A stretch of DNA of 64,000 nucleotides from Saprospiraceae bacterium (GTDB lineage Bacteria; Bacteroidota; Bacteroidia; Chitinophagales; Saprospiraceae): contig JAEUUP010000027.1 in NCBI GenBank assembly GCA_016787525.1, forward strand, positions 3,058 through 67,057, read 5' to 3'. Both the position numbers and the translations under genes were made by a program. Under the pieces are notes generated by a model that was given only the letters and a program-made list of their open reading frames with translations, was not told where the DNA came from and did not search any database. The first letter of the stretch is position 1. The number at the start of each line of letters is the position of its first letter. Positions 795-63,569 of this stretch are shown here, one piece after another.

Positions 795-942
795 ATCTAA
801 TGACCCACAATTGAATTAACACCTAACAATTTTTGTCTAAAAGCTATTTTTACTGAGGGGGCTATTTTGAGGACAAAAATAAGTCATAAAACACAAAAGC
901 CGTTGCAAACATTAAAGTTTACAACGGCTTTTTTCACTTTCG

Positions 943-1025
943 TACCTCGGGCGGGACTCGAACCCGCACGAGCTAATGCTCACAGGATTTTAAGTCCTGC
1001 GTGTCTACCATTCCACCACCAAGGC
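943..1025 (-). tRNA. tRNA-Leu (anticodon TAA), long variable arm
   Basis: Manual fold of the reverse complement: acceptor GCCTTGG/CCGAGGT with wobble pairs, anticodon loop CTTAAAA, long extra arm, T-arm GCGGGTTCGAGTCCCGC. About 83 nt; CCA is not encoded. Confidence 0.8.
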
Positions 1026-1123
1026 AATACGACAATGTTGTGCAAATGTATAAAAAGTCTCTTTCAAAACAAAAAAAAAGCCACCTTTTCAGATGGCTAT
1101 TTCTTTACTTTTCGCAGAAAGAG

Positions 1124-1196
1124 AGCGGAAAACGAGACTCGAACTCGCGACCCCAACCTTGGCAAGGTTGTGCTCTACCAACTGAGCTACTTCCGC
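1124..1196 (-). tRNA. tRNA-Gly (anticodon GCC)
   Basis: Reverse complement GCGGAAGTAGCTCAGTTGGTAGAGCACAACCTTGCCAAGGTTG...GCGAGTTCGAGTCTCGTTTTCCGCT. Canonical D-loop and T-loop, anticodon loop TTGCCAA, 73 nt. Confidence 0.8.
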
Positions 1197-1360
1197 TTTT
1201 TTTGATTTATCAATATCGCCTTTGCGAATTGCGATGCAAATATACAGCACTAATGTTTTGATAACCAAATTTTTTTAGAGTTTTTTTTCAAAAAAAACTT
1301 CACACTAATTCTAATCTATTAATTATCAATCATTTAAGTTAGAAAAAAAATCATTCACAC

Positions 1361-2830
1361 TTATTCTTTGAGAGCTTTACTCAATTCATCTTTATCGTCG
1401 AAAGGAAGCTTGACACCATTGATTTCTTGATATTTTTCATGACCTTTACCTGCCAAAAGTATAATATCTCCTTTCTGAGCCAATTTTACAGCAGTTCTAA
1501 TGGCTTGGCGGCGGTCAGCTATCTCAAGCACTTTACTCGCATCTTTTACAGCTATATCCACCTTCATTTGTTCGATGATACTGAGGGGGTCTTCCGAGCG
1601 AGGATTGTCGGAGGTCAGGATCAATGTATCACTCAATGTGACACCTATTTTACCCATGATACGCCTTTTGGCAGGGTCACGATCGCCCCCTGCGCCTGTC
1701 AGTGTGATAATTTTTTGAGTGCCTTTCCTAAAGTGTCGAATTGTCTCTAGTACATTTTCTAAAGCATCGGGCGTATGAGCATAATCTACAATACCAACAA
1801 TATCCCTTTGGATGTCATGAATGTAATCAAAACGGCCTTCTGCTCCTTTTAAATTAGACAAAATGGTCAGCACTTCTAGTTTGTCCGCACCCAATAAAAC
1901 TGCCGCAGAATAAACAGCTAAAAGATTATAAGCATTGAATTCGCCTATCATTCTGGCATAAAAATCATGCCCATCCATATCTAAATGCAATCCAAGTAAA
2001 CCATTTTCAATGATTTTCGCCTTAAAATCTGCTACTTTCCGCAGTGCATAGCTGTACTTTTGGGCTTTCGTATTCTGTAACATAAACCGTCCATTGCGAT
2101 CATCGTTATTGGTCAAAGCGAAAGCGTTTTTGGATAAACCATCAAAAAGTAATTTTTTGGCATCTCGATAGTTCTCAAAAGTTTTGTGGTAGTCCAAATG
2201 GTCATGAGTAATATTTGAAAAAATCGCTCCCGTAAACTGAATGCCTGAGACACGATTTTGTGCCAGTGCGTGGCTTGATACTTCCATAAATGCAAATTGG
2301 CACCCCTCAGTAACCATCTCACAAAACAACTGTTGCAAAGCAATTTGGTCAGGCGTAGTGTGTGTAGAAGGTAAAGTTCGACTTGCAACACGATATTCGA
2401 CCGTAGAAATCAAGCCGCATTTATAGCCTAAACCCGCAAACAAATCGTAAAGTAGAGTCGCAGTTGAGGTTTTGCCATTAGTCCCCGTCACGCCCACAAC
2501 TTTGAGGTTTTGAGTCGGATTGTCGTAAAAGTTTGCAGCTAAACTACCCAAAGCAGCCGAAGCATTTTCTACTTTTATAAATCTCGCAAGTGTATCAATA
2601 ACAGGAATCTCTTCACAAATAATAGCACTTGCACCGTTTTCAATGGCTTTTGAAATAAAATCATGTCCATCTACTTGAGTACCTCGCACAGCGACAAAAA
2701 GGCTATTCTGCACCACTTTGCGGCTATCAAAAGCAATTTTTGAGATATTGGTATCTGTATCACCATGACTATCGAGGATTTCTACCCCCCTCAGTATTTC
2801 TGATAATTTTTTCATTATTTTGATTGGCAT
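1361..2830 (-). CDS. murE: UDP-N-acetylmuramoyl-L-alanyl-D-glutamate--2,6-diaminopimelate ligase (MurE)
   Basis: 489 aa. Mur ligase P-loop VVGVTGTNGKTSTA, central and C-terminal Mur ligase domains, and position in the dcw cluster next to ftsI. Confidence 0.9.
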   Translation of the reverse strand: MPIKIMKKLSEILRGVEILDSHGDTDTNISKIAFDSRKVVQNSLFVAVRGTQVDGHDFISKAIENGASAIICEEIPVIDTLARFIKVENASAALGSLAANFYDNPTQNLKVVGVTGTNGKTSTATLLYDLFAGLGYKCGLISTVEYRVASRTLPSTHTTPDQIALQQLFCEMVTEGCQFAFMEVSSHALAQNRVSGIQFTGAIFSNITHDHLDYHKTFENYRDAKKLLFDGLSKNAFALTNNDDRNGRFMLQNTKAQKYSYALRKVADFKAKIIENGLLGLHLDMDGHDFYARMIGEFNAYNLLAVYSAAVLLGADKLEVLTILSNLKGAEGRFDYIHDIQRDIVGIVDYAHTPDALENVLETIRHFRKGTQKIITLTGAGGDRDPAKRRIMGKIGVTLSDTLILTSDNPRSEDPLSIIEQMKVDIAVKDASKVLEIADRRQAIRTAVKLAQKGDIILLAGKGHEKYQEINGVKLPFDDKDELSKALKE

Positions 2831-3068: not shown

Positions 3069-5195
3069 TTAATCTAATCTTATCGAAATAATATTGCCAG
3101 GATATGCTACACTACCTGGATTAAGAGACTGAGCAACTACTTTTCCATAACCACTGAACGACACACGAAGACCTCTATTTTCAAGTAAATAAAGGGCATC
3201 TTTCAAACCCATACCCACTACTGAGGGGACTTGTTTGAGATTACCGACGTTGCGGGTCATAACATTTAAAGTGTCACTTTTGGCACGTAGAACTGTCCAA
3301 TCCTCATTTTTTGAGGCTACTATTTCGTGCTTTAACTCTACATTTTGCAACATTTTGAGTAAATCACCTTTATAGCCTACGTCATCGGGCAATAAAGCAG
3401 GTGATGGTACGGGTTTACCTTTCTGGTTGATAGGGTCACTCAATGCTATATTAGAAGAAACTAACTTATCTGCAATTTCGCGAAAAACAGGAGCAGCGAC
3501 AGTTCCTCCATAATGTCCTGTTTTGGGTTTTGAAATGGCTATAATACACGAATAAACGGGATTTTCAGCAGGGAAATAACCTACGAATGAGCCTAAATAA
3601 CCTCCTGTATGTTTTTTACCTTTATCTTTTGAATAATTCAATTGTGCGGTCCCTGTTTTTCCAGCAAAGCGATACTGAGGGGTGCGTAGATGATAAGCTG
3701 TTCCTCCTGGTAGTTCTACGACTGACTCTAACAATTCTTTTGCTTGCGACAAAGCATCTTTTGACGCTATGCTTTTATTGATAATAGTCGGTTTAAATAG
3801 TTTCTGAGTTTCATTGAATCGGCGGATCTCGCTGACCAAATAAGGCTTCATCATCACCCCATCGTTTGCAACAGCATTGTAAAATGTCAATAACTGTAAA
3901 GGTGTGATTTCCAATTCATAACCCACACTCATCCAAGGCAAAGTAATACCACTCCATGTTGCATCATCCGCGTTTTTAATGTTTGGAGGTGTCTCTCCTT
4001 CAAGCTCAATGCCCGTCGGAATGGTTAGATTGAACTCTTGTAAGTGTTTGATAAATTTTTGGCGTTTATCATTAAAATAATTGTAAACCAGTTTTGAAAC
4101 GCCGACATTCGATGACGCTGAGAAGGCTTCTTTAACTGTCATAAGGTTTTTTTTAGCCCGTTCGTGGTCTTCCAAAACAACATCTGAGTATTGGTGTCTG
4201 CCGCCTTCTATATCCACAGTATCACTTAATCTGACTGCATTTTCTTCCAAAAGTGCCAGCATTGAAGCTAATTTAAATGTCGAACCTGGCTCTACTTTGA
4301 TGCCCACAGCATAATTATAGTCTTCCCACCAACCGTCTTTTGTTCGACTAACGTTAGAAATGGCTTTAATTTTACCTGTTTTCACCTCCATAACAATCGC
4401 TGTACCATGCTCGGCTTGGTAAGCATCGCAAGAACGAATCAGAGCTGTTTGGGTAATATCTTGAATATTTACATCGAGCGTTGTTACCAAGTCATTACCA
4501 TTTCGCGGTTCAATATCGGTCAGGTCTTGTAGCGGTATCCACACATCATTGCCCACGCGAATCATCGGTACATTTTCTTTCCCACCACTCAGTTCTTTGT
4601 CAAAACGCCCTTCTAACCCGATTTTTAAATCATCTTTTGTATAACCTAAAGTCCTAAGAGCCAGCATCTTAAAAGGATGTTCGCGACGATTGGTTCTGAC
4701 TGCTATAAACCCGTTTGAGCGACCTCCTCTGAAAACTGGAAAAGTTTTCAAAATACTCAATTCTTCAAAAGTAACATCTTTTTTTATGAGTTCATAACGA
4801 CTTTTGGCGTTGAAATGTGCCCACAGATAATTCCTCCATTCATCAATAGTTGTTTTTTCTGGTGTTAAATAAGTGGTCAAACTCCAAGCCAAGGAATCTA
4901 AACTTTTGACAAACTCCTCTTTGCTCAAACCATCTGCGCCAAAGTCCATACGAACTTCAAAAAAAGGGATAGAAGTAGCCAGCAGAGACCCATCTTCTGC
5001 CAAAATATTACCTCTTTCACCTGGAACTTCTCGGTTTTGAATATACCGTTTATCTGCTTCTTTGCGCCATCTATCCCCTTCTTTTGTGACCAGCACAAAC
5101 GCTTTAAAGAAGATAATGATAGCCACAAAAATGACGATACCTGTCACGATATAAACGCGTAATAAGACATTATCTCTTATATTTCCTATTGCCAT
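3069..5195 (-). CDS. ftsI: Peptidoglycan D,D-transpeptidase FtsI / penicillin-binding protein (class B PBP with C-terminal PASTA-like domain)
   Basis: 708 aa. N-terminal TM helix, PBP dimerisation domain, transpeptidase motifs (STFK-like 'GSTFKL', SxN, KTG 'KTGTA'), and dcw cluster context. Confidence 0.85.
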   Translation of the reverse strand: MAIGNIRDNVLLRVYIVTGIVIFVAIIIFFKAFVLVTKEGDRWRKEADKRYIQNREVPGERGNILAEDGSLLATSIPFFEVRMDFGADGLSKEEFVKSLDSLAWSLTTYLTPEKTTIDEWRNYLWAHFNAKSRYELIKKDVTFEELSILKTFPVFRGGRSNGFIAVRTNRREHPFKMLALRTLGYTKDDLKIGLEGRFDKELSGGKENVPMIRVGNDVWIPLQDLTDIEPRNGNDLVTTLDVNIQDITQTALIRSCDAYQAEHGTAIVMEVKTGKIKAISNVSRTKDGWWEDYNYAVGIKVEPGSTFKLASMLALLEENAVRLSDTVDIEGGRHQYSDVVLEDHERAKKNLMTVKEAFSASSNVGVSKLVYNYFNDKRQKFIKHLQEFNLTIPTGIELEGETPPNIKNADDATWSGITLPWMSVGYELEITPLQLLTFYNAVANDGVMMKPYLVSEIRRFNETQKLFKPTIINKSIASKDALSQAKELLESVVELPGGTAYHLRTPQYRFAGKTGTAQLNYSKDKGKKHTGGYLGSFVGYFPAENPVYSCIIAISKPKTGHYGGTVAAPVFREIADKLVSSNIALSDPINQKGKPVPSPALLPDDVGYKGDLLKMLQNVELKHEIVASKNEDWTVLRAKSDTLNVMTRNVGNLKQVPSVVGMGLKDALYLLENRGLRVSFSGYGKVVAQSLNPGSVAYPGNIISIRLD

Positions 5196-5314
5196 ATTTG
5201 ATAAAATATGAGGTATAAATTATGAAATAAGTAGTCATTGGTCACTGTTCTTAAGTCATTACTATTCAAATACTAAAACAATTCCCGATTATTTAAGTCG
5301 AACAACTTAATTAG

Positions 5315-5629
5315 TCATTTCACGACAATTCTTTTTGTTCTTTGGTTGGTTGCGCGCAAACCAAATGGCTCGACTCGTTTTTCGATTTCAGATTGTTTCG
5401 TCGAAAGCATAACATTGGCTTTGGCTTCGTTGTATCGCCATTTCAAGTCTTTGATTTCTTTTTCCAAGGCTTGAATTTGACGTACTTGTTTATCCGCAAA
5501 ATTGGAATTGGCAATATAGATCAAGCCTAAAAAGAAAATGAAAAACACAAATGGAATATTACCAAATATCCAATCAGACATCATAGTGCCGACGTGAGTG
5601 TAATCTTTGAGAGGACGTGCTAATGCCAT
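5315..5629 (-). CDS. ftsL: FtsL-like cell division membrane protein (true start possibly the internal Met of MMSDW...)
   Basis: Small single-TM protein with a coiled-coil periplasmic part, sitting between rsmH and ftsI as FtsL does in dcw clusters. Confidence 0.5.
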   Translation of the reverse strand: MALARPLKDYTHVGTMMSDWIFGNIPFVFFIFFLGLIYIANSNFADKQVRQIQALEKEIKDLKWRYNEAKANVMLSTKQSEIEKRVEPFGLRATNQRTKRIVVK

Positions 5630-5714
5630 TTTTTATTGAATTAAAGGTTTACATGTTAAAAAAATTAATGAAACTCTCGTTAAAATCTCCGTCTTTGTTC
5701 TTCAAATCAAAAAA

Positions 5715-6617
5715 TTATACTTTCTCTGCAACACGTAACTTTGCTGAGCGTGCACGTGGATTGTTCCGAATTTCTTCTTGTGTTGGCTCAATCGGTTTCT
5801 TTGTAATCACTTTAAATGGGCGATGGATGTTGCCATAAAAATCGGATTGTAATTCACCGTCGAAGTTAGCACTTTTCATAAAATTTTTCACTAAACGGTC
5901 TTCAATTGAATGAAAAGTAATAACTGCTAATCGTCCTCCTGTTGTCAAAACGTCTAAACTTTGTTGTAAAAAATCTTTTAATGCACCCACTTCGTCGTTT
6001 ACTTCCATACGCAAGGCTTGAAAAACTTGTGACCGATAGCGTATTTTATCACCCATACTGAGGGGGTCGCTGACAGCTAAAAGGTCGCTGATATTTTGAA
6101 AAATTTTTCCTGAACGAGCCGCGACTAAAGCTTGTGCCAAAGTTTTAGCATTGCGCACCTCGCCGTATTCACTCAAAATTTTTTGCAGATTTTCGGCAGT
6201 AAAACTGTTTAAGATATCCGCTGCCGTTTTACCTTCATTCTGATTCATTCGCATATCCAAAGGAGCATCGAAGCGGTATGAAAAACCTCGCTCTGCTTCA
6301 TCAAATTGATGCGATGACACACCCAAATCCGCCAAAATGCCATCTACACGTCGAATTGCCGAAAAACGTAACATACGCTTCAGTTCTCTAAAATTATGAT
6401 TCAAGAACATAAATCGCTTATCTTCAAGCATTTGCGAACGTACATCTTCGTCTTGATCGAAACCAATCAGCTTGCCATTTGTAGTCAAGCCCATCAGTAT
6501 CAAACGGCTATGACCGCCTCCACCGAAGGTCGCATCTACATACGTTCCATCGGGTCGTACATTCAAAGCTTCGACTGCCTCATTGAGTAAAACAGTTGTA
6601 TGATAAGTTGCAGACAT
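5715..6617 (-). CDS. rsmH: 16S rRNA (cytosine1402-N4)-methyltransferase RsmH (MraW)
   Basis: 300 aa. N-terminal ...YVDATFGGGGHS... SAM-binding motif, and conserved position after mraZ. Confidence 0.9.
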   Translation of the reverse strand: MSATYHTTVLLNEAVEALNVRPDGTYVDATFGGGGHSRLILMGLTTNGKLIGFDQDEDVRSQMLEDKRFMFLNHNFRELKRMLRFSAIRRVDGILADLGVSSHQFDEAERGFSYRFDAPLDMRMNQNEGKTAADILNSFTAENLQKILSEYGEVRNAKTLAQALVAARSGKIFQNISDLLAVSDPLSMGDKIRYRSQVFQALRMEVNDEVGALKDFLQQSLDVLTTGGRLAVITFHSIEDRLVKNFMKSANFDGELQSDFYGNIHRPFKVITKKPIEPTQEEIRNNPRARSAKLRVAEKV

Positions 6618-7301: not shown

Positions 7302-7765
7302 TTTTCATTCATTTTTCTGTCCGCTATTCGTCTCTCTTTTTCCTAAAAAAACTAGTTTGAATCGCTTATTGCTGTTTCATGGTTCAAAAGTAGTACCTTT
7401 TTTCCACATTCTCCCACTTTTTCCCACTTATTTTTCACAAAATATTTATCCACATTTCCACATTCTGAACAACATATTGACATCCAACATTTTACATGTA
7501 GGATATAAATTTTAATAGTGCAAAAATAATTTTCATTTTTTTTGACTGCTCCGAAGCATAGGAAGTGGTTATCTATCCAATCACCATTCCAATACTGAGG
7601 GGTATTTCTAAGTACTCAAAAACAGCAAAAAAAAAGGTAGTTTTCGCAAACTACCTCTAATAACCGAAGCCAATTAATAAGTTGGTGGTAAAATGTGGTT
7701 AATATGTATCATCTAGAACTTTAGATTAAACAAAAAAATATTGAAACCAATTAATCTATTTTTCA

Positions 7766-9616
7766 TCAGTCCTTAGTTGCTTTTAACACATGCTTCGTTA
7801 CCGAACGATTGTAAATATTGGTAAATGTCAACATATAGTTACCATCTTGAAATCTCGACAAATCTAATTTGATTTCCTTCACATCGGTCGAAATAGGCGT
7901 TTCATAAACCAATAATCCTTTACTGTTGAAGACGTGGAGTCGTTTATAACTATAAATAGACTCCCATTTCACACGAAAAATACCCGTTGAAGGATTAGGA
8001 AACACTCGAATGCCTTTTACTTCTGCATCAACCGAGCCACCGCTGTTGTCATCTTTTTTCTTAACAGTAACTGTCACTAAGTCACGCATAGAATAATATT
8101 TTGCTTGATTAGGATCCTTTATCAAGTAATCATCCTCCGACGAAAAGCGAAAAACATACGTTCCTGCTTCGCTACATTTTACTTTTGTTGCCCGTGATTT
8201 AGTATTTTCAAACGAAACATCGCCAACGCCTGACACTTTTTCCCATAAAACAGGTAGCGAGTCGTTGAGTACGCCATCCTTATACACCCGCCCCCTCAGT
8301 ATGACAGAGTCTAAAAGCACTTCTTTTTGGTCTTCACCTGCTTGAATATCGTATGTTTTTTTAAAAGAAAATGGGTTTTCAAATCCTGTCAGATGCTGAT
8401 GAAAAAAAGAATATCGTCCAAACCAGTACTCTTCGGGATAGTTATGCCCTATTTCTCGCAAATGCAACATTGTCGCTGCACCCAAGTATTGATTGTAGGC
8501 AGCAAAATGGGTAGCAGTAGGTGTCACATCGTCCTTATAACCCGTTTGAATCATCAAAGCCCCTTTGTAGCGTTTCAAAAAATAAACAGCATCGTGGTAT
8601 TTTGAGGCTATTTTCACTTTGTTCGTATCCATACCCAACGATGCACCTTGTATATTATAACGTGGAAAACCACTCGCTCGATGGTAGCGCGTACCTTGTT
8701 GCTCCGAGTTGGCTGGTGCTATGGCTAAAACAGCCTTCACCCGCTCATCCAAACCTGCCAAAGTGATAGATAAGCCACCACCCTGCGAATTACCACAAAG
8801 CCCCAAACTACCATTGAAATCGGGTCGAGATGCGACATAATCAATTGCCCTCAAACCACCTAAAACCATCCAACGGTTGTAAAACTTTGTTGGGTCAGTT
8901 AAATCATTAGGTTTGTAAGCATTTGAGTCTTCTTGGTTGGGAGGCGTGTTATGAACAGTCAGTTGGACGATTATTGACTTACATTTTTCAGCAAAATCGG
9001 TCACTACAAAGCCATCTGGTTCAAAAGGGACTGTACCAAAGGGAGGCAATTGGATAATCGCTGGAAACTTACCACTACCCGCAGGTATTGCTATATAACC
9101 ATTGACTGTCCGTCCGTCCACATTGTCTAATCGCAGGACATAGAGTTTTGAACCATTGGGCAATGTATTTTTTAAAGTGAGTTGTGGATTGATGGGAATC
9201 GCTTTGAGTTTTTCCTTTTCTTTTTTCCAAAAATCGTCAAAATCAGATGGCTCTGTTTCGATTGGCTGAATGTTATGTGGGTCGAATACGGCACTGACCC
9301 AAGCAACCTGTCCATTCTGTTCTGCCTTGAAAAAAATCGCTCCTGGATGAGGTAGATTGAACAGCACAACAGTGTCTGAGCGTCCTTGTTGAATCGTAAA
9401 ACTGCCTTTTTTAATCACTGAACTTTCGTCTCGAGGGTCATACCAAATAGAATAAGAGCCAGTTCCAAACACATTTGATGAAATACGAAATGCAGCCTTC
9501 TCACCTGCGGCATAAGTGGCTTTCACATTATCCATTGTGATTTTGACTTGACTTTTAAGGAAAAAGGGGGAAAACAATAGGTTGATGGCAACCAGAAATC
9601 GTTGGCAGTTCTTCAT
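7766..9616 (-). CDS. Secreted alpha/beta hydrolase (acetylxylan esterase / CE7-like, GNSQGG nucleophile motif) with C-terminal T9SS sorting domain
   Basis: 616 aa with a signal peptide. GNSQGGGLS matches GxSxG in AXE1-like context. The C-terminal ~80 aa (VFPNPSTGIF...YMLTFTN...) resembles a Por_Secre_tail. Confidence 0.5.
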   Translation of the reverse strand: MKNCQRFLVAINLLFSPFFLKSQVKITMDNVKATYAAGEKAAFRISSNVFGTGSYSIWYDPRDESSVIKKGSFTIQQGRSDTVVLFNLPHPGAIFFKAEQNGQVAWVSAVFDPHNIQPIETEPSDFDDFWKKEKEKLKAIPINPQLTLKNTLPNGSKLYVLRLDNVDGRTVNGYIAIPAGSGKFPAIIQLPPFGTVPFEPDGFVVTDFAEKCKSIIVQLTVHNTPPNQEDSNAYKPNDLTDPTKFYNRWMVLGGLRAIDYVASRPDFNGSLGLCGNSQGGGLSITLAGLDERVKAVLAIAPANSEQQGTRYHRASGFPRYNIQGASLGMDTNKVKIASKYHDAVYFLKRYKGALMIQTGYKDDVTPTATHFAAYNQYLGAATMLHLREIGHNYPEEYWFGRYSFFHQHLTGFENPFSFKKTYDIQAGEDQKEVLLDSVILRGRVYKDGVLNDSLPVLWEKVSGVGDVSFENTKSRATKVKCSEAGTYVFRFSSEDDYLIKDPNQAKYYSMRDLVTVTVKKKDDNSGGSVDAEVKGIRVFPNPSTGIFRVKWESIYSYKRLHVFNSKGLLVYETPISTDVKEIKLDLSRFQDGNYMLTFTNIYNRSVTKHVLKATKD

Positions 9617-9678: not shown

Positions 9679-10728
9679 TCATTTCATTGTCTTTATCCAT
9701 TCACGAATCAATTCGACCCCCTCAGTATGCACCAACGCGCGACCTACTTCGGGCATCATTTCGCCTGGATTTGTCGTAGCCATGCGATACAACAAGATAC
9801 TCTCAGCGGGTTTTTGAGGAAAAATATCGTATTTCAAATTGCCCGAACCACGTCCAGCCGCCACAGGTGTTTTATAGAAGCCATAAGCCGTTGAATCTTT
9901 TGTTTTCCAATCTAAAAACAAACCCGATGTCACGGCTGGGCCACTCAAATTGTGACAATGGGCGCAATTGATGTCCAAATATGCCCGCGCTTTAGCATCT
10001 AAGGATGCCGCTTTATCCTCCCAATTTGGAAATTTTGGGACAGCTGTAATGTCCGGAGGCAACCCCCTCAGTATGCCAATCTTTGACCAATGTAGTAATT
10101 GATTTTCTGCGCCCAAATCTCCATTCAATTGCCGTGCAGAAGGCCCGATAGGCGACATTTTATCACCGCGAATATGACACCCACGGCATTGATTAACATT
10201 AGGAATCAAATAGTCGAAAGATTGTTTTTTACCTTTCGCATCTTTGAAAACCACTTTTTTAGTATCACCAGCAGGTTCTAAAGTCGCTTCTGTTTGCTCA
10301 TCGTTCCAAACATAAGGCAAAGCTACCCAGCCACCATCATCATCTCTCAAAAGAACCCTCGTTTCTAAAATACGTCGCCCTTTTTTCTCATCTTTAAAGT
10401 CATTGGGATAGTAAAAAGTCTTAATTATTTTAGTGCCAATCGGAAATTGCAAGACGGAATCAGCATTATAATCTACTGTTTTGCCATCAGGTAACTGCAC
10501 AAAGCGCAATTTTTGAGCATAATCTGAAAACAAAGGCATATTTAAACCATAATTTACAACACCCTTTGCAGGCTTTTGTTCCGACATTTTGCCCTCAAAA
10601 AAACCGTATTCTGACAGATTATCTTTGATAGTTGATGGCATTACTGAGGGGATGTCATTTGGTGAAAACGACATCAAAATCACAATAAAAACAAATAGAC
10701 AAAAAGTAAATAGTTTAAATTTAAGCAT
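9679..10728 (-). CDS. Di-haem c-type cytochrome family protein (secreted)
   Basis: 349 aa with a signal peptide and two CxxCH haem-binding motifs (CRGCH, CAHCH). Confidence 0.5.
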   Translation of the reverse strand: MLKFKLFTFCLFVFIVILMSFSPNDIPSVMPSTIKDNLSEYGFFEGKMSEQKPAKGVVNYGLNMPLFSDYAQKLRFVQLPDGKTVDYNADSVLQFPIGTKIIKTFYYPNDFKDEKKGRRILETRVLLRDDDGGWVALPYVWNDEQTEATLEPAGDTKKVVFKDAKGKKQSFDYLIPNVNQCRGCHIRGDKMSPIGPSARQLNGDLGAENQLLHWSKIGILRGLPPDITAVPKFPNWEDKAASLDAKARAYLDINCAHCHNLSGPAVTSGLFLDWKTKDSTAYGFYKTPVAAGRGSGNLKYDIFPQKPAESILLYRMATTNPGEMMPEVGRALVHTEGVELIREWIKTMK

Positions 10729-47722: not shown

Positions 47723-47760
47723 GCGCATTAAACGTGTCAACAACTTTTCAATATAAAAAA

Positions 47761-53482: not shown

Positions 53483-54103
53483 TCACTGAATCGGATAACA
53501 CGTATATTCCCCTCGTTCTTCGGCTTCGTGTGAAGAAAGGTCAAATGAGATGTACTGACCATAGCCAAAACTCAAACCTTGTTTTTCCCATTTTTCCCTA
53601 TCAGGACACACCGAAGCCGCCAATCTCAAGTTCCGTGTATCTAAAGGAGTCATATAAATCAGCTTATTCTGTTCAAAACGCATCTCCGTTTCGTACCTCG
53701 CTTCGTGGACGGGTTTTCGATTTTTCAGGTCATAAATAAGCAGCGAACGACCATTCGGTCCAGTGCCATTGTCCACAAACATCAAATTGTCTTTGATGCC
53801 ATAAAAATGGTGTGCATCAATATTCTCAATCCAAAAGGTATCTTTCACCCCCTCAGTAAAAACATAAATTTCCTCGCCAACACCTTCTTCTGAAAGCACT
53901 GTTTTTATTTTATGTTTGGCATAACTATAATTTCGCCCCGTCGTTGTTTCTTCGCATTTAGCTGATTCGCAACCTTTTATGCCCACAAGCGTATCGCGTT
54001 GAGCCGTTGCTACCGAAGACTTAGATGACGCTGTTTGACTTTTATTTTGACCGCAAGCGGAAATAAAAAGCGTGGACAAAAACAGTAAGATTAGATTTTT
54101 CAT
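53483..54103 (-). CDS. Hypothetical lipoprotein
   Basis: 206 aa. Signal peptide plus ISACG lipobox. Confidence 0.4.
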   Translation of the reverse strand: MKNLILLFLSTLFISACGQNKSQTASSKSSVATAQRDTLVGIKGCESAKCEETTTGRNYSYAKHKIKTVLSEEGVGEEIYVFTEGVKDTFWIENIDAHHFYGIKDNLMFVDNGTGPNGRSLLIYDLKNRKPVHEARYETEMRFEQNKLIYMTPLDTRNLRLAASVCPDREKWEKQGLSFGYGQYISFDLSSHEAEERGEYTCYPIQ

Positions 54104-56512: not shown

Positions 56513-59089
56513 CTACATTTTCACCAATTTCAAAGGCATTTTCTCTTTCTGAACAATGAAATAAATGCCTTTGGGCAATTGCCTCACGTCAAAAAACAGT
56601 TGATTTTTCCCCATTTCCAATCTGCGATTTTCGGAGTAAACAGCTTTGCCAAAAGAGTCGGTAATGGTGAAAAGCGTATTTTGCGCGACGACACTTTCCA
56701 CCTCCATTTGAACAAAATCTGTACTGGGATTAGGTGTCAAACGTTGCGGCGAAAAAGATACAGGATAGACCGAAACTGTCGCACTATTGTTCGATTCAAT
56801 CAAATCTGCTGGCGTTGAAGCCAACAATTTGGTCGTACCTACAAGCGGCGGTGTCAAATTGAGTACAAAAATAGGCACTGTCAGAGTCGCCGTCCCACGG
56901 GCTGCCAAAGTCGGAATACTCCACGTAAAACAAGGTACACCACCAGCACACCATTCGCTCCACGTTCCTACTGAGGGGGTCGCTGTGCCACCGTTTGCCG
57001 TAAATTCGGGGTATTTAAACATTATTCTCACATCGCTAAAAGGCTGATTTCCTGCATTTTTTGCGGTAATGATAAAGTCAATATTTTTATACGGTTGATA
57101 GTGCGATGGCGTTGTCGCTATACTCAAAACAATGTCAGGCGCATCAAAATTCGGGTCTTGCAACACCCGCACCGTAAACCCACACGTCGAAGCATTGCGT
57201 GCCAAGTCATAGGCTGTCACCGTCACATCCGTTGCGCCCACAGGCAATTTTATGTCGGGCAAAACATTTTCCCCATTTGGCAAAGCATAAATAAGTGTGA
57301 TGTGTTCACAAGCATCGCTGACTGAGGGGGTCGGCAACGTGACCAAAGCAGAGTCTTGACTGGTTGGTATTGTCACAATCAAGTTGGCGGGGCAGGTGAT
57401 CCTGGGCTTGGTCGTGTCATTTTCGCAAGGGTCAACTCCTGCGATGATGTTGATGGCATAATCTTCCACTTCGCCCTTATCGAAGGTCTCGCAGGCTGTG
57501 GGATAGCTGCCATTTTTCAAACTGACACGCATTAGAGTTGTGCCAAGTCCAGCTGTATTGGGTATAAATACATTGGTTGTCAATGGATTAGCATTGTTTT
57601 GTTCCAATACTTTTTCGCTGTCTTCAAAAATTCGGTTTTGATTAAAATCAATCCATACTCGACAGTAAGCGTTGGGCAAATTGCCTATCCAACTCAAAGC
57701 AGGCGTGATACTGAGGGGGTAAGTCCGATTGGTCGCAATCGTCGTCGAAAGGTTGGTATAGTCCGAATAACCCAGCGTAGCAAAGTCTTTAAACTTGTCG
57801 CTCGAATTGTTGATGCTGTCAAAACGCACGTTTGCAATCCACAATTCCCAAGGCGTATTGCTTTTAGAGGGGCAATATTTTTCGGTCAAGGTCGGAAATT
57901 TGTTCCTATAAAAATAAATGGTATTGCCTGAGCCACCCACCATCGCAAAACCGCCATTGAGGGTTTCCATCATATTGGTCGCTTGCGTCAAACCTGTTTG
58001 TTCTGGCACAACGATACTGTCCAATTGCGCGCCTGTGCGACCACTCAATTTGCGTACAATCGTCCCTTTTTGAGTTTCGACCAAAACATTGCCGTCGCGT
58101 TGCATCGTTATTGCGCCTGCATACTGCAATTTAGTCCCATTGCATAGTTGCCCTTTGCGCTCAAAAGTCCACAAAGTATCACCAAAAGCATTGAATTTAA
58201 ATACTTTATAACTGGCTTCCTCACACGCAGCTGTTTTTGAAACATACGTCAACAGCACCAATAAATTGCCATTTTCGGCGGGGTAAACATTGTGGTATTG
58301 GCCTTCTGTCGCACTCGATAGGCTGGCTTTGTGCCACAGATAATTACCATTTGTATCCAAACGTACCACCACCGCGCCGTCTCCATTGCCCATACCGCAG
58401 TTTGTTGCGGGTTCTTTCGTTGTGTATTCAAAATAGTAGCCGCCATCGGTTGTTTGCCATATTTTATTGACTGGGATACGTTTATTGATGACAAAATCGC
58501 TACAATCGGAGCTATTTGAGCGTCTGATTTTGCTGTAAATCATGCCTTGGCTGACTACTTTTTGCCATTGTAAATTGCCCAACGAGTCCGTTTTTATCAA
58601 TTGCACTTTGTAAGTCGTGTCATTAGCGACCTGCGTTTCGCCGACAATCATAAAACCTTTGTCGCGAGTAGGCAAAACATAATTCCCAACATTGTCCATA
58701 CTGAGGGGGTATGTTTTTGACCAAATAGTGGTGTTGGTACGGCTTATTTTACTCAAAGTAATATCGCGGTTGGGTTCTGAACCTGTGGCACTGGTGATGG
58801 CATAGTAAATTGAATCGTAGCGATAACGCCCGCAACTGCCCACAAAATCGGTTTCTGCATTGAGAAAATTGCCTTGTGCATCTGTCCACACATAGGTGGC
58901 TTGGCTGTTGGCACTTGTGCAAGTATTGATAAGAAAATTTGCTCCGTTATTGAACTCACCCATCGCCGAAGTTTGGGCGGGAAAATTATAGGTTTTAAAA
59001 ATACCTGTGTTCTGAGCATACAAAAAGAAAGGAAAAATGGCGAGCATACTGAGGGGTACTCTGAAATAGACTAAACGTGAGAGACTCAT
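56513..59089 (-). CDS. Large secreted GEVED-domain protein with T9SS C-terminal sorting domain
   Basis: Signal peptide after the internal Met. CETFDKGEVEDYAINI motif. The C-terminal ~80 aa (…GIYFIVQKE…KLVKM) resembles Por_Secre_tail. Confidence 0.55.
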   Translation of the reverse strand: MSLSRLVYFRVPLSMLAIFPFFLYAQNTGIFKTYNFPAQTSAMGEFNNGANFLINTCTSANSQATYVWTDAQGNFLNAETDFVGSCGRYRYDSIYYAITSATGSEPNRDITLSKISRTNTTIWSKTYPLSMDNVGNYVLPTRDKGFMIVGETQVANDTTYKVQLIKTDSLGNLQWQKVVSQGMIYSKIRRSNSSDCSDFVINKRIPVNKIWQTTDGGYYFEYTTKEPATNCGMGNGDGAVVVRLDTNGNYLWHKASLSSATEGQYHNVYPAENGNLLVLLTYVSKTAACEEASYKVFKFNAFGDTLWTFERKGQLCNGTKLQYAGAITMQRDGNVLVETQKGTIVRKLSGRTGAQLDSIVVPEQTGLTQATNMMETLNGGFAMVGGSGNTIYFYRNKFPTLTEKYCPSKSNTPWELWIANVRFDSINNSSDKFKDFATLGYSDYTNLSTTIATNRTYPLSITPALSWIGNLPNAYCRVWIDFNQNRIFEDSEKVLEQNNANPLTTNVFIPNTAGLGTTLMRVSLKNGSYPTACETFDKGEVEDYAINIIAGVDPCENDTTKPRITCPANLIVTIPTSQDSALVTLPTPSVSDACEHITLIYALPNGENVLPDIKLPVGATDVTVTAYDLARNASTCGFTVRVLQDPNFDAPDIVLSIATTPSHYQPYKNIDFIITAKNAGNQPFSDVRIMFKYPEFTANGGTATPSVGTWSEWCAGGVPCFTWSIPTLAARGTATLTVPIFVLNLTPPLVGTTKLLASTPADLIESNNSATVSVYPVSFSPQRLTPNPSTDFVQMEVESVVAQNTLFTITDSFGKAVYSENRRLEMGKNQLFFDVRQLPKGIYFIVQKEKMPLKLVKM

Positions 59090-59371
59090 TTCGTTCGTTT
59101 TAAAAGTGAATGCTAATCGGTTTGTTTTAATACAAAAAATCAAAACACTTGATAAGCTACTGTTTATCAAATGTTTGCATCAATAAAATGAGTTTTTTGT
59201 TTGTACTAAAAATGTGATAAAAGTCTGTCTGTCGTTGATTCTATTTCTAATAGTGGCGCAAAATTATAAAATTCCGACTTGTTTGTATGACGAAAAAACA
59301 GGAAAATGTAACCCCAGAATATAATGCTGTGATATTTTCTTACTTTTGTTTTTTTACTAAAAAATCAAATC

Positions 59372-60445
59372 ATGACAATGCGAATCTTACCACTGCTCGT
59401 TATGCTCGTTCTCAGTTTTACAGCCTTGTCCCAAACAATGGGTAATGCCAACCAGCAAGTTTACAATACGTCCACTGCGGCAAATGTCCACAATCAGAAC
59501 CCAGTTAGCAATAATACGAATAACAATAAAAGAGTGGAGCTGCCCATCAATCTCTATCACAGCAACGTCAATCTGCAAGCGGAAATACTGTACAATGCTA
59601 AACCTTCGACCTATTTAGCCATTTTTGCGACTACACAAGAGGGTGAAAAAGCCGAAGATGTGGATAGAAACATGAATCAACGCATCGAAACTTTCAAGCG
59701 GGGTTTGACGGAAGCAGGTATTTCATCGAGTCAGGTTTTTGTGGATTTTATCAGTCTGATGCCCAAATACGAAATGCAAGTTGAGAAAAAGCGTTTTTCA
59801 AAAACAGCAAATGAAGTGCCGATTGGTTTTCAGTTGAAGAAGAACATTCATATCTCGTTCACTGATGGTAAGGTTTTGGACAAAATCATTTCGGCAGCTA
59901 CGGCAGCGGAAATCTATGATTTGGCAAAAGTAGAAGTGAGTATGAGTGACTCGAAAAAAGCCTTAGCTGAGTGCCGCGAAGAAGCAATGAAAATCATAAA
60001 AGAAAAAACAAAAGTGTTCGCAGATTTGGGTATCAAAACGACACCCCTCAGTATTGGGGATAATTTTGAGACTTACTATCCAAGCGAAAACTACGAATCA
60101 TATGTTGCGGCGGCATATGATTATAGTCAAGTCCAAAGCCAACAACAGTTCAAAGTAGGCAAAATAGCTGTGAAATATGCCAATAAAGACCGCACAGTGT
60201 TCTACTCTCGCTTGCCTTATGACCAGTTCGATACTGTCATCAATCCCGATTTTATAGAGCCTCCGATTCAGATTCACTACAAATTGATGGTACAATATCA
60301 AATTGAAAATATCGAACTCAAAACCAAGCGCGATGCAGACGAAGAACGTAACCGTCAACACAATGAGGTAGTCAGAAAAGATGAATTACGCATTCGAGAA
60401 CTCCAAGCTCAGAATCCGCCAAAAACGTGCTGCGATAAGAATTAG
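59372..60445 (+). CDS. Hypothetical secreted protein
   Basis: 357 aa. Signal peptide, Asn/Gln-rich N-terminus, and a C-terminal CC motif. Confidence 0.4.
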   Translation: MTMRILPLLVMLVLSFTALSQTMGNANQQVYNTSTAANVHNQNPVSNNTNNNKRVELPINLYHSNVNLQAEILYNAKPSTYLAIFATTQEGEKAEDVDRNMNQRIETFKRGLTEAGISSSQVFVDFISLMPKYEMQVEKKRFSKTANEVPIGFQLKKNIHISFTDGKVLDKIISAATAAEIYDLAKVEVSMSDSKKALAECREEAMKIIKEKTKVFADLGIKTTPLSIGDNFETYYPSENYESYVAAAYDYSQVQSQQQFKVGKIAVKYANKDRTVFYSRLPYDQFDTVINPDFIEPPIQIHYKLMVQYQIENIELKTKRDADEERNRQHNEVVRKDELRIRELQAQNPPKTCCDKN

Positions 60446-60503
60446 GGTAAAAAAGAGTGGATTTATAGTCTTACACACATAAACCCACTCCTTTTAGAAA
60501 AGC

Positions 60504-63500
60504 CTAAAACTTAAGAAATTTCGTCGGCACATTCAGCCCTTTGCCTGCATCAGTTTGAATAAAATAGATGCCTTGTGGTAAGTCAAACAGGTCGAAGTTC
60601 AAGTGATTTGAGCCTTTTTGAAGGACTCTTGTTGCCGATTGCAGCTCTTTTCCGTTGATGTTATAAAAACCAAACTGCACTGTTTGGTCTATCAAACTCT
60701 CCAATTCGACCACAACCTCCCCCTCAGTAACGGTTGGATGGATGGATTGAATGACGACAGGCACGAGTTGCGTAGGCTTTTGGCGTATCGAGGCTTGCAA
60801 CGGTGCGGCTGAGTTGATGGACAGCGTGGCGATGTTGTTCGAAAGATTGGCATCGGTGGGCGTAGAACTCAATAGCTTTGCCGTTGCCATAATTGGCGAA
60901 GTCGGATTCAGCACGTATAAAGGCACTTGCAAGGTAGCTGTTGCGTCAACGGCTAAATTTGGAATCGCCCATTGAAAACATTGAACGCTGCCTGCACACC
61001 ATTCTCGCCATATCCCTACTGAGGCGACTGCTGCACCGCCATTTGTTGTGCCTATTGGGAATTTAAACTCGACTATAACATTCGTAAAGGCTTGATTGCC
61101 TGTGTTTTTAGCTGTGATGATGACATTCAAAGGGCTAAATTTGGTAAAGACGGAAGGGTTGACGGTCATACTCATTGCCATATCTGCACTGCTTTCATTA
61201 CTGATGACTGAAAATTGGGTTGCTGACACTAAAATATTATTGTTTTCATTGCTTTCCACTACTTGATTGTCGGCATCCACTTTCAAAATCAAATAATAAC
61301 GACCTATTGCTAAAGTCGCAGGGAGGGTCGAAGCACCATTAACTTGTGATACAGAAAACCCAGAATTGAAATTACCAGTTGGGATAATACCATCTTGTAC
61401 GTCATCAGCACTCAATACACTGTCAGTTGACACATAGGCTTTAACAGCAAAGTTGCCAGGAGCGTTGGCAGTGCCGATGTTTTTAATATCTACCTTCCAA
61501 TTCAAAATCTGACCCCGTTGTACTGAGGGGGTCGGTAGAGTCAAAGTCGCAAGAGTCAAATCGGGTTGTGGCATAGGAGTATTGCCACAATCGGGATTCC
61601 AAGCCCATAAAATACCATTTCTTGAACCTAAAACCAGACATGTGGTGTCGCCTGTACGCACAATATGGTCGTATGGCACGAACAGAATGTTCTTGACGTG
61701 CGTGGGTACAGTAAGCGCATTGTCCAAAAAACGGACTTCTAACCTTGTGAAATTATTGTAACCGACACGCGGGTCGCCTGCGAAATTGGCACTCAGGCGG
61801 TAAGCTGTGTCACGCAACGACGGACGATAGTAGTAACTGTATGTCCGATATTGCCCGTAGTAGTCCGTACTACCCTGCCCTACTTCGCGCAGAGTCAATG
61901 GAATAAGGCTGTCTGTGTTGAAAAGAGTGGTCAGAGTACCTGAAAAACTGCCTTTTTGTCCGTAACGACTGCCATTAATGGAAAAAATTAAGTGGTTGCC
62001 GCAAGCAGCTACAATCATTGGCGTTTGTGGTGCACCAATACCTAAATTGCTTGCTTTGAGGCGTTGTAGGTTGTTGTTTGTTTTCTGATATTTCACTAAA
62101 TTGTGGTTGCTCACCGTCAATAAGCCCACAACACCATAGCCATAGCTCAACAAAAACTGATTATTGGGCAGTAAAAACAGTTGATAGCAGGTGTCAAAGG
62201 GCACATTGTAAGGGCCTTGGTTGCGTGCTTCGACGGTGTGGTCGAGGTAGTTGAGTTGGGCATCGGTGGTGACTAAAACCAAAGAGTCTCGGTTGTTAGG
62301 CGGATAGGTTGGGTCGTAAAATTTTTGAAAACCTGCTAAAACAAATGTGCCATCGCCCATTTCGAGGGCGGCATCAATCTTTGGTAGGCGGCTCAATACT
62401 GAGGGGGCGATGTTTTTGGTGTAAGCAAGTGTGCCATTGACTAATTTTTTGATAACTTGATTGTTTCTAACCAAAATACTGTCTTTTTGAGCCGTGCCGA
62501 GCGTCGAACTGCTGATGGGTTGACCGTTTTTATCTACCTGTTTTTGAATCAGATTGTTGCCATCACTCACAATCAAGGTCGTCGAACCGTCTGTGTTGGG
62601 CGAATAGCACAACAATTGGGTGTTGCCTAAGCTGTTGCTGCACGTCGGAATCGTCGGCAGGGTGACGTTGATGGCAATCGAGCCGTTATTATTCGCCGTG
62701 TTGGTCTCGTTACTGAGGGGGGCGACTCGGATGATGAAATAGGGATTCGTGTGAGTCCATGTGGGCGGGATTTCGATTTGATGATTTTTCAAAACACTCT
62801 CATTTGTCGCCAACGAAGCAGTATAATCGGAACTCACCAGTATATCGTCGCTTGAATATTGATTGTCTGAAGACAAATAAACATAACTGAAAATAGCCGA
62901 TGCCGTCGCCACATTGCTCGCATTACGAATATAATAACCCAAATTATGTCCAACACCTACTTCAAAGACGCTGGCAGCCGATATGTTTTCCAATACCAAG
63001 TCTGGTGCAGCCGTTTGCCCCCCCTCAGTAATTTGGACGGTGTAGTCTTCCACTTCGCCTCGGTCAAACGTTTCGCAGGCTGTCGGATATGCGTTGTATT
63101 TCATCGCGATACGCATTCGTGTATTGCCCAAAGCGGCTGTCGCAGGCACTGTAAAAGCATTTTCGTTGTCAAAAAACAGTTGGTTTTGATAGACTACTTG
63201 GCGATTGATGACTTGCTCGTCGGCATCCGCAAAGTCACCGTCCTTGTTGAAATCAATCCACACACGCCAAAACAGAGACGCGTGCCGAGGGTCGCCCATC
63301 CAGCTTGCTTGAGGTTCGATTGTCACCAAATTGCCATTGTTGCGGAGCATGGGCGCAGGTGCGAGGTTGGTGAAGTTTCCGTATCCTTCTTTTTGTGTGG
63401 CGGGAAACGAGGTGCTGCCCAAAGCATTAGACACATGCACACGTCCCAACCACGCCTCCCACGGGGCTGTGGCTTTTGCGGTGCAATACGTTTGTGCCTG

Positions 63501-63569
63501 AGAAAAAGTACCCACCAATAGGAAAATACTGAGGGGTATGTGTTTCCACGAAATCAGTGCTTTTTTCAT
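60504..63569 (-). CDS. Large secreted GEVED-domain protein with T9SS C-terminal sorting domain (paralog of 56513..59089)
   Basis: Signal peptide MKKALISWKHIPLSIFLLVGTFSQAQ. CETFDRGEVEDYTVQI motif. The C-terminal ~80 aa (…GIYFIQTD…KFLKF) resembles Por_Secre_tail. The N-terminal domain (…WRVWIDFN…) is shared with the other gene. Confidence 0.55.
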   Translation of the reverse strand: MKKALISWKHIPLSIFLLVGTFSQAQTYCTAKATAPWEAWLGRVHVSNALGSTSFPATQKEGYGNFTNLAPAPMLRNNGNLVTIEPQASWMGDPRHASLFWRVWIDFNKDGDFADADEQVINRQVVYQNQLFFDNENAFTVPATAALGNTRMRIAMKYNAYPTACETFDRGEVEDYTVQITEGGQTAAPDLVLENISAASVFEVGVGHNLGYYIRNASNVATASAIFSYVYLSSDNQYSSDDILVSSDYTASLATNESVLKNHQIEIPPTWTHTNPYFIIRVAPLSNETNTANNNGSIAINVTLPTIPTCSNSLGNTQLLCYSPNTDGSTTLIVSDGNNLIQKQVDKNGQPISSSTLGTAQKDSILVRNNQVIKKLVNGTLAYTKNIAPSVLSRLPKIDAALEMGDGTFVLAGFQKFYDPTYPPNNRDSLVLVTTDAQLNYLDHTVEARNQGPYNVPFDTCYQLFLLPNNQFLLSYGYGVVGLLTVSNHNLVKYQKTNNNLQRLKASNLGIGAPQTPMIVAACGNHLIFSINGSRYGQKGSFSGTLTTLFNTDSLIPLTLREVGQGSTDYYGQYRTYSYYYRPSLRDTAYRLSANFAGDPRVGYNNFTRLEVRFLDNALTVPTHVKNILFVPYDHIVRTGDTTCLVLGSRNGILWAWNPDCGNTPMPQPDLTLATLTLPTPSVQRGQILNWKVDIKNIGTANAPGNFAVKAYVSTDSVLSADDVQDGIIPTGNFNSGFSVSQVNGASTLPATLAIGRYYLILKVDADNQVVESNENNNILVSATQFSVISNESSADMAMSMTVNPSVFTKFSPLNVIITAKNTGNQAFTNVIVEFKFPIGTTNGGAAVASVGIWREWCAGSVQCFQWAIPNLAVDATATLQVPLYVLNPTSPIMATAKLLSSTPTDANLSNNIATLSINSAAPLQASIRQKPTQLVPVVIQSIHPTVTEGEVVVELESLIDQTVQFGFYNINGKELQSATRVLQKGSNHLNFDLFDLPQGIYFIQTDAGKGLNVPTKFLKF

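Follow-up and report, generated by a model that had tools for sequence, protein, structure and literature searches.

A hyper-abundant, strand-balanced 10-bp word as a candidate DNA uptake sequence in an uncultured clade of Saprospiraceae

Surveys from 2025-2026 describe uptake sequences only in the Neisseriaceae, as the DNA uptake sequence (DUS), and in the Pasteurellaceae, as the uptake signal sequence (USS). Among the Bacteroidota, Riemerella is naturally transformable and R. columbina shows a preference for self DNA in competition assays (PMC7965970, PMC8459023), indicating that self-preference in uptake or transformation exists in this phylum. Analysis of k-mers in Riemerella returned only A-rich, low-complexity words enriched about 4- to 7-fold and no discrete signal, and the transformation machinery is without pilus homologs and needs ComEC, DprA, an HhH protein, a DUF5689 protein and a CarboxypepD_reg outer-membrane protein (PMC7965970, PMC8459023). 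Here we describe a 64-kb stretch of DNA (the window) from a Saprospiraceae bacterium (GenBank assembly GCA_016787525.1, contig JAEUUP010000027.1, positions 3,058 to 67,057) that is densely populated by the 10-mer TACTGAGGGG. A first-pass annotation of the window had proposed that this word is a DNA uptake signal and that nothing comparable had been reported in Bacteroidota. The claim of novelty holds in the literature searched: we found no report of an uptake sequence in Bacteroidota or Saprospiraceae, and full-text searches for the 10-mer on either strand retrieved eukaryotic primer sequences only.

The window contains 78 exact copies of TACTGAGGGG (41 on the plus strand and 37 on the minus strand, spanning 851-63536), in line with the 75-85 copies, about 40 per orientation, that had been estimated by eye. 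This corresponds to 1.22 copies per kb, or roughly one per 800 bases counting both strands, while 100 dinucleotide-preserving shuffles of the window gave a mean of 0.01. There are only 15 one-mismatch variants, seven of them mismatched at the first T (position 1), and the 9-mer ACTGAGGGG is present in 87 copies. The scarcity of one-mismatch copies (78:15) and the seven of 15 that fall at the first T suggest that all 10 positions count and that ACTGAGGGG is the functional core, with the positions other than the first T tightly held.

We aligned all 78 exact copies to define the extended form of the word. The base at position -1 is A in 42 copies and T in 23 (A or T in 65 of 78), and position +1 has G 47 times, T 27 times (together 74 of 78) and C never, such that the form found in the window is W-TACTGAGGGG-K. 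Almost no information content remains beyond about 12 bp and the flanks are unrelated to one another, which argues that the copies are not a mobile element. The A-run that intergenic copies had been said to carry downstream was weakly supported; we observed instead a modest T-richness 5-9 nt 3' of the G-run (30-35 of the 78 sites versus 23 expected). After TACTGAGGGG was masked, no second dispersed k-mer was found in the window, and only two tandem arrays were left.

Sixty of the 78 copies are genic, 27 in sense and 33 in antisense orientation, and they occupy every stop-free frame. Sense copies read TEG (23) or LRG (4) and antisense copies read PLS (14), PSV (14) or PQY (5), and the TAC-TGA frame is used by none of the genic copies in the window, exactly the pattern of frames that the first-pass annotation had described. 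Three copies overlap gene ends, where two provide the stop codon (PQ followed by the stop) and one abuts it (LRG followed by the stop). With 18 copies (23% of all sites), intergenic DNA, which accounts for 11.5% of the sequence, is enriched two-fold (p = 0.003). At least one copy is held by 21 of the 24 window genes of at least 900 bp; the three without a copy, at 11165-12070(-), 30142-31191(-) and 37291-38364(+), comprise one Rpn-family recombination-promoting nuclease/transposase gene and two orphan ORFs without a Pfam match, and may have been recently acquired. Spacing between copies is more regular than random (coefficient of variation 0.66 versus 0.98, p ~2e-4), the widest gap is 2.6 kb, and plus and minus copies are interleaved along the whole 64 kb.

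Relatives were found by a MurE scan of one genome per GTDB species, a set of representatives that does not include the source genome. The nearest are seven species-level Saprospiraceae metagenome-assembled genomes (MAGs; L001-L007) from glacier-fed streams and similar sites, with MurE 73-83% and DNA 70-76% identical to the window, and all seven carry TACTGAGGGG at 0.7-1.3 per kb. Their WGS prefixes are JAYTMI01, JAYVFS01, JAYTUQ01, JAYTUR01, JAYSRS01, JAYUKJ01 and JANLQI01. For three proteins of the window (the TonB-dependent receptor, AlaRS and FolA), no identical protein was on record. Six other Saprospiraceae MAGs (MurE 56-60% identical) have zero copies in 109 kb, and of 67 other Bacteroidota loci only one has the word, in a single copy ascribed to chance. 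Scanning metagenomes for inverted pairs of the word gave six further motif-rich contigs (L083, L087, L088, L108, L110 and L124), on which the genes are unrelated housekeeping genes (EF-Tu, NusG and RuvC, read from translations; RecA, KdpA and aconitase, identified with Pfam), so the density of the motif holds at unlinked loci. Over 152 kb of clade DNA outside the window, the word occurs at 0.86 per kb.

Tested contig by contig, none of the 15 clade contigs showed significant strand polarity, which argues against a motif of the Chi type or of the KOPS type (FtsK-orienting polar sequences). The first-pass annotation had listed a local artefact, a strand skew and a single transposed element as outcomes that would speak against an uptake signal. 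Each is contradicted here, the first by the density of about 1 per kb on unlinked contigs of relatives, the second by the lack of polarity in all 15 contigs, and the third by unconserved flanks and by copies that arise and decay through point substitution at orthologous positions. The base at -1 varies with sub-lineage, being W in the window and A in 81% of sub-clade A sites, and L005 and L006 have the form A-core-TCC; in these small samples, the differences in flanking bases resemble dialects.

About 48 of the 56 metagenome matches to the inverted-pair pattern were isolated chance hairpins with no further copies. Frequent 10-mers in the non-clade loci L035, L054, L028 and L052 were local tandem or palindromic repeats and not dispersed motifs; L035 (a Sphingobacteriales MAG) has a tandem array with a unit of about 21 bp at 18390-18818, and L054 (Pedobacter paludis) has a cluster of palindromic repeats at 4652-5733.

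The history of individual copies could be followed where the dcw region is syntenic, over about 10 kb. L002, L003 and L007 have exact matches at most of the window sites despite different flanking bases, and species without a given site hold a near-match at the orthologous position that differs by one to a few substitutions. Near-motifs at orthologous positions, together with unrelated flanks, point to an origin of the copies by point mutation and not from a mobile element. In murE (1361-2830(-)), the antisense copy at 1579-1588(+) (PLS) is kept in seven of seven relatives, the sense copy at 2303-2312(-) (TEG) in five of seven, and the sense copy at 2787-2796(-) (LRG) in six of seven; all three sites are common to three sub-lineages and show only occasional single-base decay. 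When each of the seven relatives is compared with the window, third codon positions of murE share 46-49% identity outside the motif, which is near saturation, whereas those inside the motif sites are 100% identical in six of the seven. The constraint therefore acts on the DNA and not on the protein.

The proteins appear to have adapted to the word. Motif-encoded residues (PLS, TEG, LRG, PSV and PQY) are clade-specific and fall in columns that are variable in 68-73 other Bacteroidota MurE, FtsI and RsmH sequences; for example, E-D-P-[QEA]-[QTA]-I of MurE is E-D-P-L-S-I in the clade, and P-N-V of FtsI is P-S-V. Because motif residues replace variable residues, the word seems to have been imposed on proteins where this was tolerated. 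USS and DUS are likewise described as forced onto variable protein positions (PMC2817400). A local adaptation of GuaB had been proposed from the window alone, and the sense copy at 18784-18793(+) in guaB (18389-19870(+)) is indeed read as VTEG.

The word is also abundant in one viral contig from IMG/VR, IMGVR_UViG_3300037309_000133 (L138, L140 and L141; positions 4633-26484), which has 21 copies in 21.9 kb (0.96 per kb). These lie inside genes for a terminase, a Mu-type portal, MuF, a head protease, a major head protein, a tail sheath and a MuB-like transposition ATPase, and the MuF protein is fused to an ADP-ribosyltransferase domain. The contig is that of a temperate-type, Mu-like transposable phage or prophage, and the density of 0.96 per kb assigns it to the motif-bearing Saprospiraceae clade as host. 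Temperate phages of Pasteurellaceae, including Mu- and BcepMu-like phages, accumulate USS up to host-like frequency and large lytic phages do not (PMC6776037), and the copies in the Mu-like contig fit an uptake model in the light of that precedent.

Inverted-pair matches in all other viral contigs were isolated hairpins, probably due to chance, without further copies. Nineteen unrelated IMG/VR contigs (L142-L161) each have one CCCCTCAGTA...TACTGAGGGG hairpin and no other copies, and several of these come from one sample (3300045988) and have 34-37% GC. These single hairpins may be due to chance or may be a terminator common to one phage group.

Within the window, five inverted pairs of the motif form predicted hairpins with dG of -16 to -38 kcal/mol, each of them located between a convergent pair of genes. 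Two exact copies are paired at 47296-47330 (dG -27.7), between folD(+) and ORF 47317-47715(-), where the intergenic copy 47296-47305(+) is the 5' arm and 47321-47330(-), the copy that overlaps the end of the ORF and abuts its stop codon, is the 3' arm. Two exact intergenic copies, 53443-53452(+) as the 5' arm and 53465-53474(-) as the 3' arm, are likewise paired at 53443-53474 (dG -23.8), between 48812-53431(+) and 53483-54103(-). The other three hairpins join an exact copy to a one-mismatch copy. At 23803-23844 (dG -25.3), between 23183-23773(+) and 23990-25663(-), the exact copy is the intergenic 5' arm 23803-23812(+). At 26705-26741 (dG -16.1), between 26165-26689(+) and 26731-27114(-), it is the 3' arm 26732-26741(+), which gives the PQ and stop codon of ORF 26731-27114(-). 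At 39559-39610 (dG -37.8), between 38643-39539(+) and 39681-40271(-), it is the intergenic 3' arm 39601-39610(+), and the pair is an outer stem that encloses a GC-rich hairpin with an A-run and a T-run flanking.

Four of these pairs had been noted at first reading and all four are real, although the coordinates of one (47303-47345) were off and are corrected here to 47296-47330; the pair at 26705-26741 is an addition. Inverted-repeat DNA uptake-enhancing sequences in terminators are described in the survey literature of 2025-2026, and the pairs at convergent gene ends in the window parallel these. Just upstream of the hairpin at 47296-47330 and leading into it, a short 21-bp tandem repeat (47233-47303, 3.4 copies) alternates degenerate TACTGAGGTT with the exact motif and includes the intergenic copy 47254-47263(+).

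The remaining intergenic copies lie outside the hairpins. One, 19910-19919(+), lies between the convergent guaB and a TonB-dependent receptor gene, and another, 34724-34733(+), lies about 50 nt past the 3' end of the tmRNA gene. The others are at 851-860(+), 7593-7602(+), 14713-14722(+), 30050-30059(-), 31732-31741(-), 33951-33960(+), 37181-37190(-), 38381-38390(-), 41098-41107(-) and 48713-48722(-).

Genic copies beyond those already described are distributed along the window as follows. In the first third, ftsI (3069-5195(-)) has antisense copies at 3219-3228(+) (PSV) and 3673-3682(+) (PQY), and rsmH (5715-6617(-)) has one at 6056-6065(+) (PLS). ORF 7766-9616(-) carries a sense copy at 8292-8301(-) (LRG), ORF 9679-10728(-) has two sense copies, 9718-9727(-) (TEG) and 10064-10073(-) (LRG), and an antisense copy, 10642-10651(+) (PSV), and ORF 10743-11081(-) has an antisense copy at 10978-10987(+) (PQY). 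The rlmL-like gene (12160-13284(-)) is marked in sense at 12391-12400(-) (TEG) and in antisense at 12635-12644(+) (PQY), and ORF 13300-13761(-) in sense at 13594-13603(-) (TEG). Both copies in folA (14795-15286(+)), 15034-15043(+) and 15160-15169(+), are in sense and read TEG. The DUF2851 gene (15626-16921(+)) has a sense copy at 15922-15931(+) (TEG) and antisense copies at 16397-16406(-) (PLS) and 16600-16609(-) (PSV), and ORF 16938-18233(+) has a sense copy at 18002-18011(+) (TEG). The TonB-dependent receptor gene (19960-22605(-)) has one antisense copy, 21217-21226(+) (PSV).

Four antisense copies fall in ftcD (23990-25663(-)), at 24253-24262(+), 24604-24613(+) and 25303-25312(+) (all PLS) and at 25607-25616(+) (PSV). 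Sense copies reading TEG are found in ORF 27102-28508(-) (27795-27804(-) and 28446-28455(-)), in an SPFH-domain gene at 31743-33614(-) (31824-31833(-) and 33426-33435(-)) and in a 2-oxoglutarate-Fe(II) oxygenase gene at 39681-40271(-) (40002-40011(-)), and a histidine kinase gene (35399-36850(+)) has an antisense copy at 35698-35707(-) (PSV). The alaS gene (41146-43794(-)) holds five copies, of which 41188-41197(-), 42508-42517(-) and 42619-42628(-) are in sense (TEG) and 43177-43186(+) and 43621-43630(+) are in antisense (PSV). A 3-hydroxyacyl-CoA dehydrogenase gene (45235-46125(-)) has a sense copy at 45631-45640(-) (TEG), folD (46291-47223(+)) an antisense copy at 46867-46876(-) (PLS) and prmA (47734-48612(+)) a sense copy at 48093-48102(+) (TEG).

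Towards the end of the window, ORF 48812-53431(+) has antisense copies at 49438-49447(-) and 50020-50029(-) (both PSV) and at 52805-52814(-) (PLS) and a sense copy at 51178-51187(+) (TEG), and ORF 53483-54103(-) has a sense copy at 53849-53858(-) (TEG). In ppk1 (54300-56423(+)), an antisense copy at 55427-55436(-) reads PSV and the copy at 56413-56422(-) gives the PQ and stop codon of the gene. A gene for a cargo protein of the type IX secretion system (T9SS; 56513-59170(-)) has antisense copies at 56969-56978(+) (PSV), 57709-57718(+), 58699-58708(+) and 59047-59056(+) (all PLS), and a SIMPL-domain gene (59372-60445(+)) has one at 60044-60053(-) (PLS). The last gene, 60504-63710(-), holds sense copies at 60720-60729(-) and 63021-63030(-) (TEG) and antisense copies at 61521-61530(+) and 62397-62406(+) (PSV) and at 62711-62720(+) and 63527-63536(+) (PLS).

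In other respects, the window is an ordinary piece of Bacteroidota chromosome, with mraZ-rsmH-ftsI-murE, guaB, folA, ftcD, alaS, folD, prmA and ppk1, a SusC-like receptor gene and several genes whose products have T9SS sorting domains. Rfam matches in it are limited to a tmRNA gene (34782-35173(-)) and two tRNA genes (943-1025(-) and 1124-1196(-)); the program-called ORFs 34753-35040(+) and 867-1205(+) overlap the tmRNA and tRNA genes and were rejected as spurious. Thirteen window ORFs are without any family match, and ORF 48812-53431(+) (1539 aa) has no Pfam match even at E=0.01. Of the two large tandem arrays, the one at 29454-29888 has 21.8 copies of the 20-bp unit TTTTGCAAGTTGCAACGCAC (87% match). 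A 20-bp period is not a multiple of three, so this array does not encode protein, and the ORFs that overlap it (29350-29964) are artefacts. The array lies in the lowest-GC (0.35) and motif-poor part of the window, beside a DUF6932 gene (28745-29188), and could be iteron- or centromere-like. The other, a 21-bp repeat at 47336-47722 (18.4 copies), encodes a heptad-repeat (coiled-coil) protein, ORF 47317-47715(-).

Any explanation of the word has to account for an observed combination of enrichment, architecture, point-mutational origin, conservation at the level of DNA, restriction to one clade and accumulation in one phage contig. We think it probable that (W)TACTGAGGGG(K) is a DNA uptake-enhancing sequence of an uncultured freshwater/glacier-stream Saprospiraceae clade, kept by biased uptake and recombination, because all of the listed features match DUS and USS and no other described motif class combines them. 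As far as sequence analysis goes, the uptake-signal reading of the first-pass annotation is thus supported, and the predictions tested at that level came out as expected, although a comparison of densities in recently acquired genes had three motif-free long genes to draw on. What we infer, as opposed to observe, is that the organisms are competent, that they have a receptor and that their uptake is biased.

In the proposed mechanism, double-stranded DNA with the 10-12-bp word would be bound at the surface or in the periplasm by a receptor belonging to the natural-transformation machinery, and fragments from clade members would thereby be taken up preferentially. Replacement of the resident allele by RecA-dependent recombination would then lead to over-transmission of word-bearing alleles (molecular drive, possibly plus selection). 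The word would accumulate by point substitution where protein or regulatory sequence tolerates it and would resist decay, with an evenly spaced saturation at about 1 per kb on both strands as the end state. Inverted pairs between convergent genes may have been recruited as bidirectional terminator hairpins or tolerated within them, and long-resident prophages would acquire the word in the same way. A bolder possibility, which we put forward only tentatively, is that the clade has a sequence-specific DNA uptake system, the first beyond the Pseudomonadota, which evolved independently in Bacteroidota and has a new, non-ComP-like surface receptor. Since the competent Bacteroidota studied so far are without type IV pili, the receptor would not be a ComP-like pilin; candidates would include a protein anchored through the T9SS or one that partners an outer-membrane transporter of the SusC/TonB type.

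Several other forces could in principle maintain such a word. It might be recognised inside the cell by a system that binds or processes DNA, to the benefit of any replicon resident there, and be kept by ordinary selection. Such a system could be an abundant protein that structures the nucleoid, or the word could mark DNA as self in either orientation and so restrain a host nuclease or defence system. Even spacing and strict conservation at orthologous sites would suit this, as would the full density in the Mu-like phage, which would profit from mimicking host DNA, but accumulation in phages is also documented for an uptake sequence (PMC6776037). That no competence genes were seen in the clade DNA that was read, as considered below, also counts in favour of an intracellular site. 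We know of no nucleoid, segregation or self-marking motif with an asymmetric 10-bp site at about 1 per kb, equal use of the strands and copies within coding regions that are paid for in protein sequence: parS, matS, Noc and SlmA sites occur in small numbers and are palindromes for the most part, and Chi shows polarity. We therefore regard an intracellular site as rather unlikely. A sequence-specific mutational or repair bias (a nickase, very-short-patch-like (VSP) repair or biased gene conversion), with no function for the word, would resemble ideas put forward for HIP1 and seems improbable to us. Such a bias would explain the point-mutational origin, the very sharp ratio of exact to one-mismatch copies, the effect on all resident DNA including prophage, and the restriction to a single clade, as expected from one enzyme gained once. 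However, known methyltransferase or VSP targets are shorter than this contiguous asymmetric 10-mer and do not resemble it, a pure mutational bias would predict neither the even spacing nor the pairs at convergent gene ends, and no candidate enzyme was seen in the window. HIP1 itself is an 8-bp palindrome tied to methyltransferases (PMC4390886), and TACTGAGGGG is asymmetric by its letters, unlike the palindromic word matching a methyltransferase site that a HIP1-type motif would be.

The word is also short, G-rich, over-represented and non-palindromic, as are the polar chromosome motifs of the Chi type (RecBCD/AddAB hotspots) and of the KOPS or SRS (SpoIIIE recognition sequence) type, which guide FtsK and SpoIIIE. 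With 41 plus and 37 minus copies interleaved over 64 kb and not one of 15 clade contigs significantly polar, a motif of this kind is very improbable; Chi of E. coli, moreover, occurs about once per 4.5 kb, several-fold below the density of the Saprospiraceae word. Hardly credible, finally, is an origin as remnants of a miniature mobile element or a repetitive extragenic palindromic (REP)-like repeat, or a primary role at the level of RNA, for example as terminator stems. Five inverted pairs do form stable hairpins after genes, and the short tandem repeat at 47233-47303 does contain motif copies, but only 8 of the 78 exact copies take part in pairs. REP elements and miniature inverted-repeat transposable elements would present a conserved, usually palindromic element longer than the core and restricted to intergenic DNA, and here nothing is conserved beyond about 12 bp and 77% of the copies lie within genes, in frame, with many of those checked found at orthologous positions. 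Copies on both strands inside genes cannot be explained by roles in RNA: there is no transcribed-strand bias (27:33), and the only Rfam matches in the window are the tmRNA and the two tRNAs.

Some observations weigh against an uptake sequence. No dedicated competence or pilus gene was seen in about 200 kb of clade DNA (the window and about 140 kb of other sequence), in which only recA, on L110, was found, with L083, L088 and L108 checked by reading translated ORFs and not by a scan with hidden Markov models; as 200 kb is a few per cent of a genome, this negative says little either way. Literature searches returned no known natural competence in Saprospiraceae, and the organisms of the clade are uncultured. 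With Riemerella being without pilus homologs and having only A-rich k-mers, the phylum offers no precedent for a sequence-specific receptor. Sliding-window identity over an alignment of about 20 kb revealed no recombination mosaics between related species, the density in the phage fits any host-internal force on resident DNA equally well, and polarity with respect to the replichore was tested within contigs only.

If the word is an uptake sequence, it would be a third, independently evolved case, in another phylum, and would show that uptake specific to self DNA has arisen repeatedly in evolution. Uptake sequences, regarded until now as limited to two families of proteobacteria, would gain a wider range, molecular drive could be weighed against selection in a natural, environmental and non-pathogenic lineage, and competence would be indicated for Saprospiraceae that abound in stream biofilms, a group with no known competence. 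Such a case would also open a route to a new, probably non-pilin, DNA receptor, which could be sought among genes present in the motif-bearing clade and absent from motif-free sister Saprospiraceae. The word can serve as a lineage barcode, which has already tied a Mu-like phage contig to its putative host clade, and the hypothesis is directly testable.

The closest counterpart to the Saprospiraceae word is the DUS (GCCGTCTGAA and its dialects) of Neisseriaceae. Both are non-palindromic words of 10-12 bp, found on either strand with a density of about 1 per kb, in genic and intergenic DNA alike, with inverted pairs in terminator-like hairpins, conservation at orthologous positions and a core common to a family-level clade with dialect variation. 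The sequences are unrelated, and the DUS belongs to Pseudomonadota and not Bacteroidota. ComP, a minor type IV pilin, serves as receptor for the DUS, whereas neither a pilus nor ComP was seen in the clade DNA that we read, and uptake bias has been demonstrated for the DUS and is predicted for the Saprospiraceae word. The USS of Pasteurellaceae (AAGTGCGGT / ACAAGCGGT) is comparable or lower in density, saturating near 750 per Mb (PMC6776037). The USS is also placed onto variable protein positions (PMC2817400), and it accumulates in temperate phages including Mu-like ones (PMC6776037). AT-rich flanks are a shared but weak likeness, as that signal is much weaker around the Saprospiraceae word; the two sequences are unrelated, and the Saprospiraceae host is uncultured.

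Chi and KOPS/SRS are likewise short, G-rich, over-represented and asymmetric, but they are strongly skewed to one strand per replichore and several-fold rarer, whereas the Saprospiraceae word is strand-balanced in every contig. HIP1 of cyanobacteria (GCGATCGC) is a hyper-abundant, lineage-restricted short word in genes and intergenic DNA, with an unresolved function; it is, however, an 8-bp palindrome linked to orphan methyltransferases (PMC4390886), and the Saprospiraceae word is asymmetric and 10-12 bp long. Riemerella, from the same phylum, has A-rich words enriched about 4- to 7-fold, in contrast to a discrete word enriched several-thousand-fold. What appears to be new in the Saprospiraceae clade is the genomic syndrome of DUS and USS, built on an unrelated word, in a new phylum and presumably with a different receptor.

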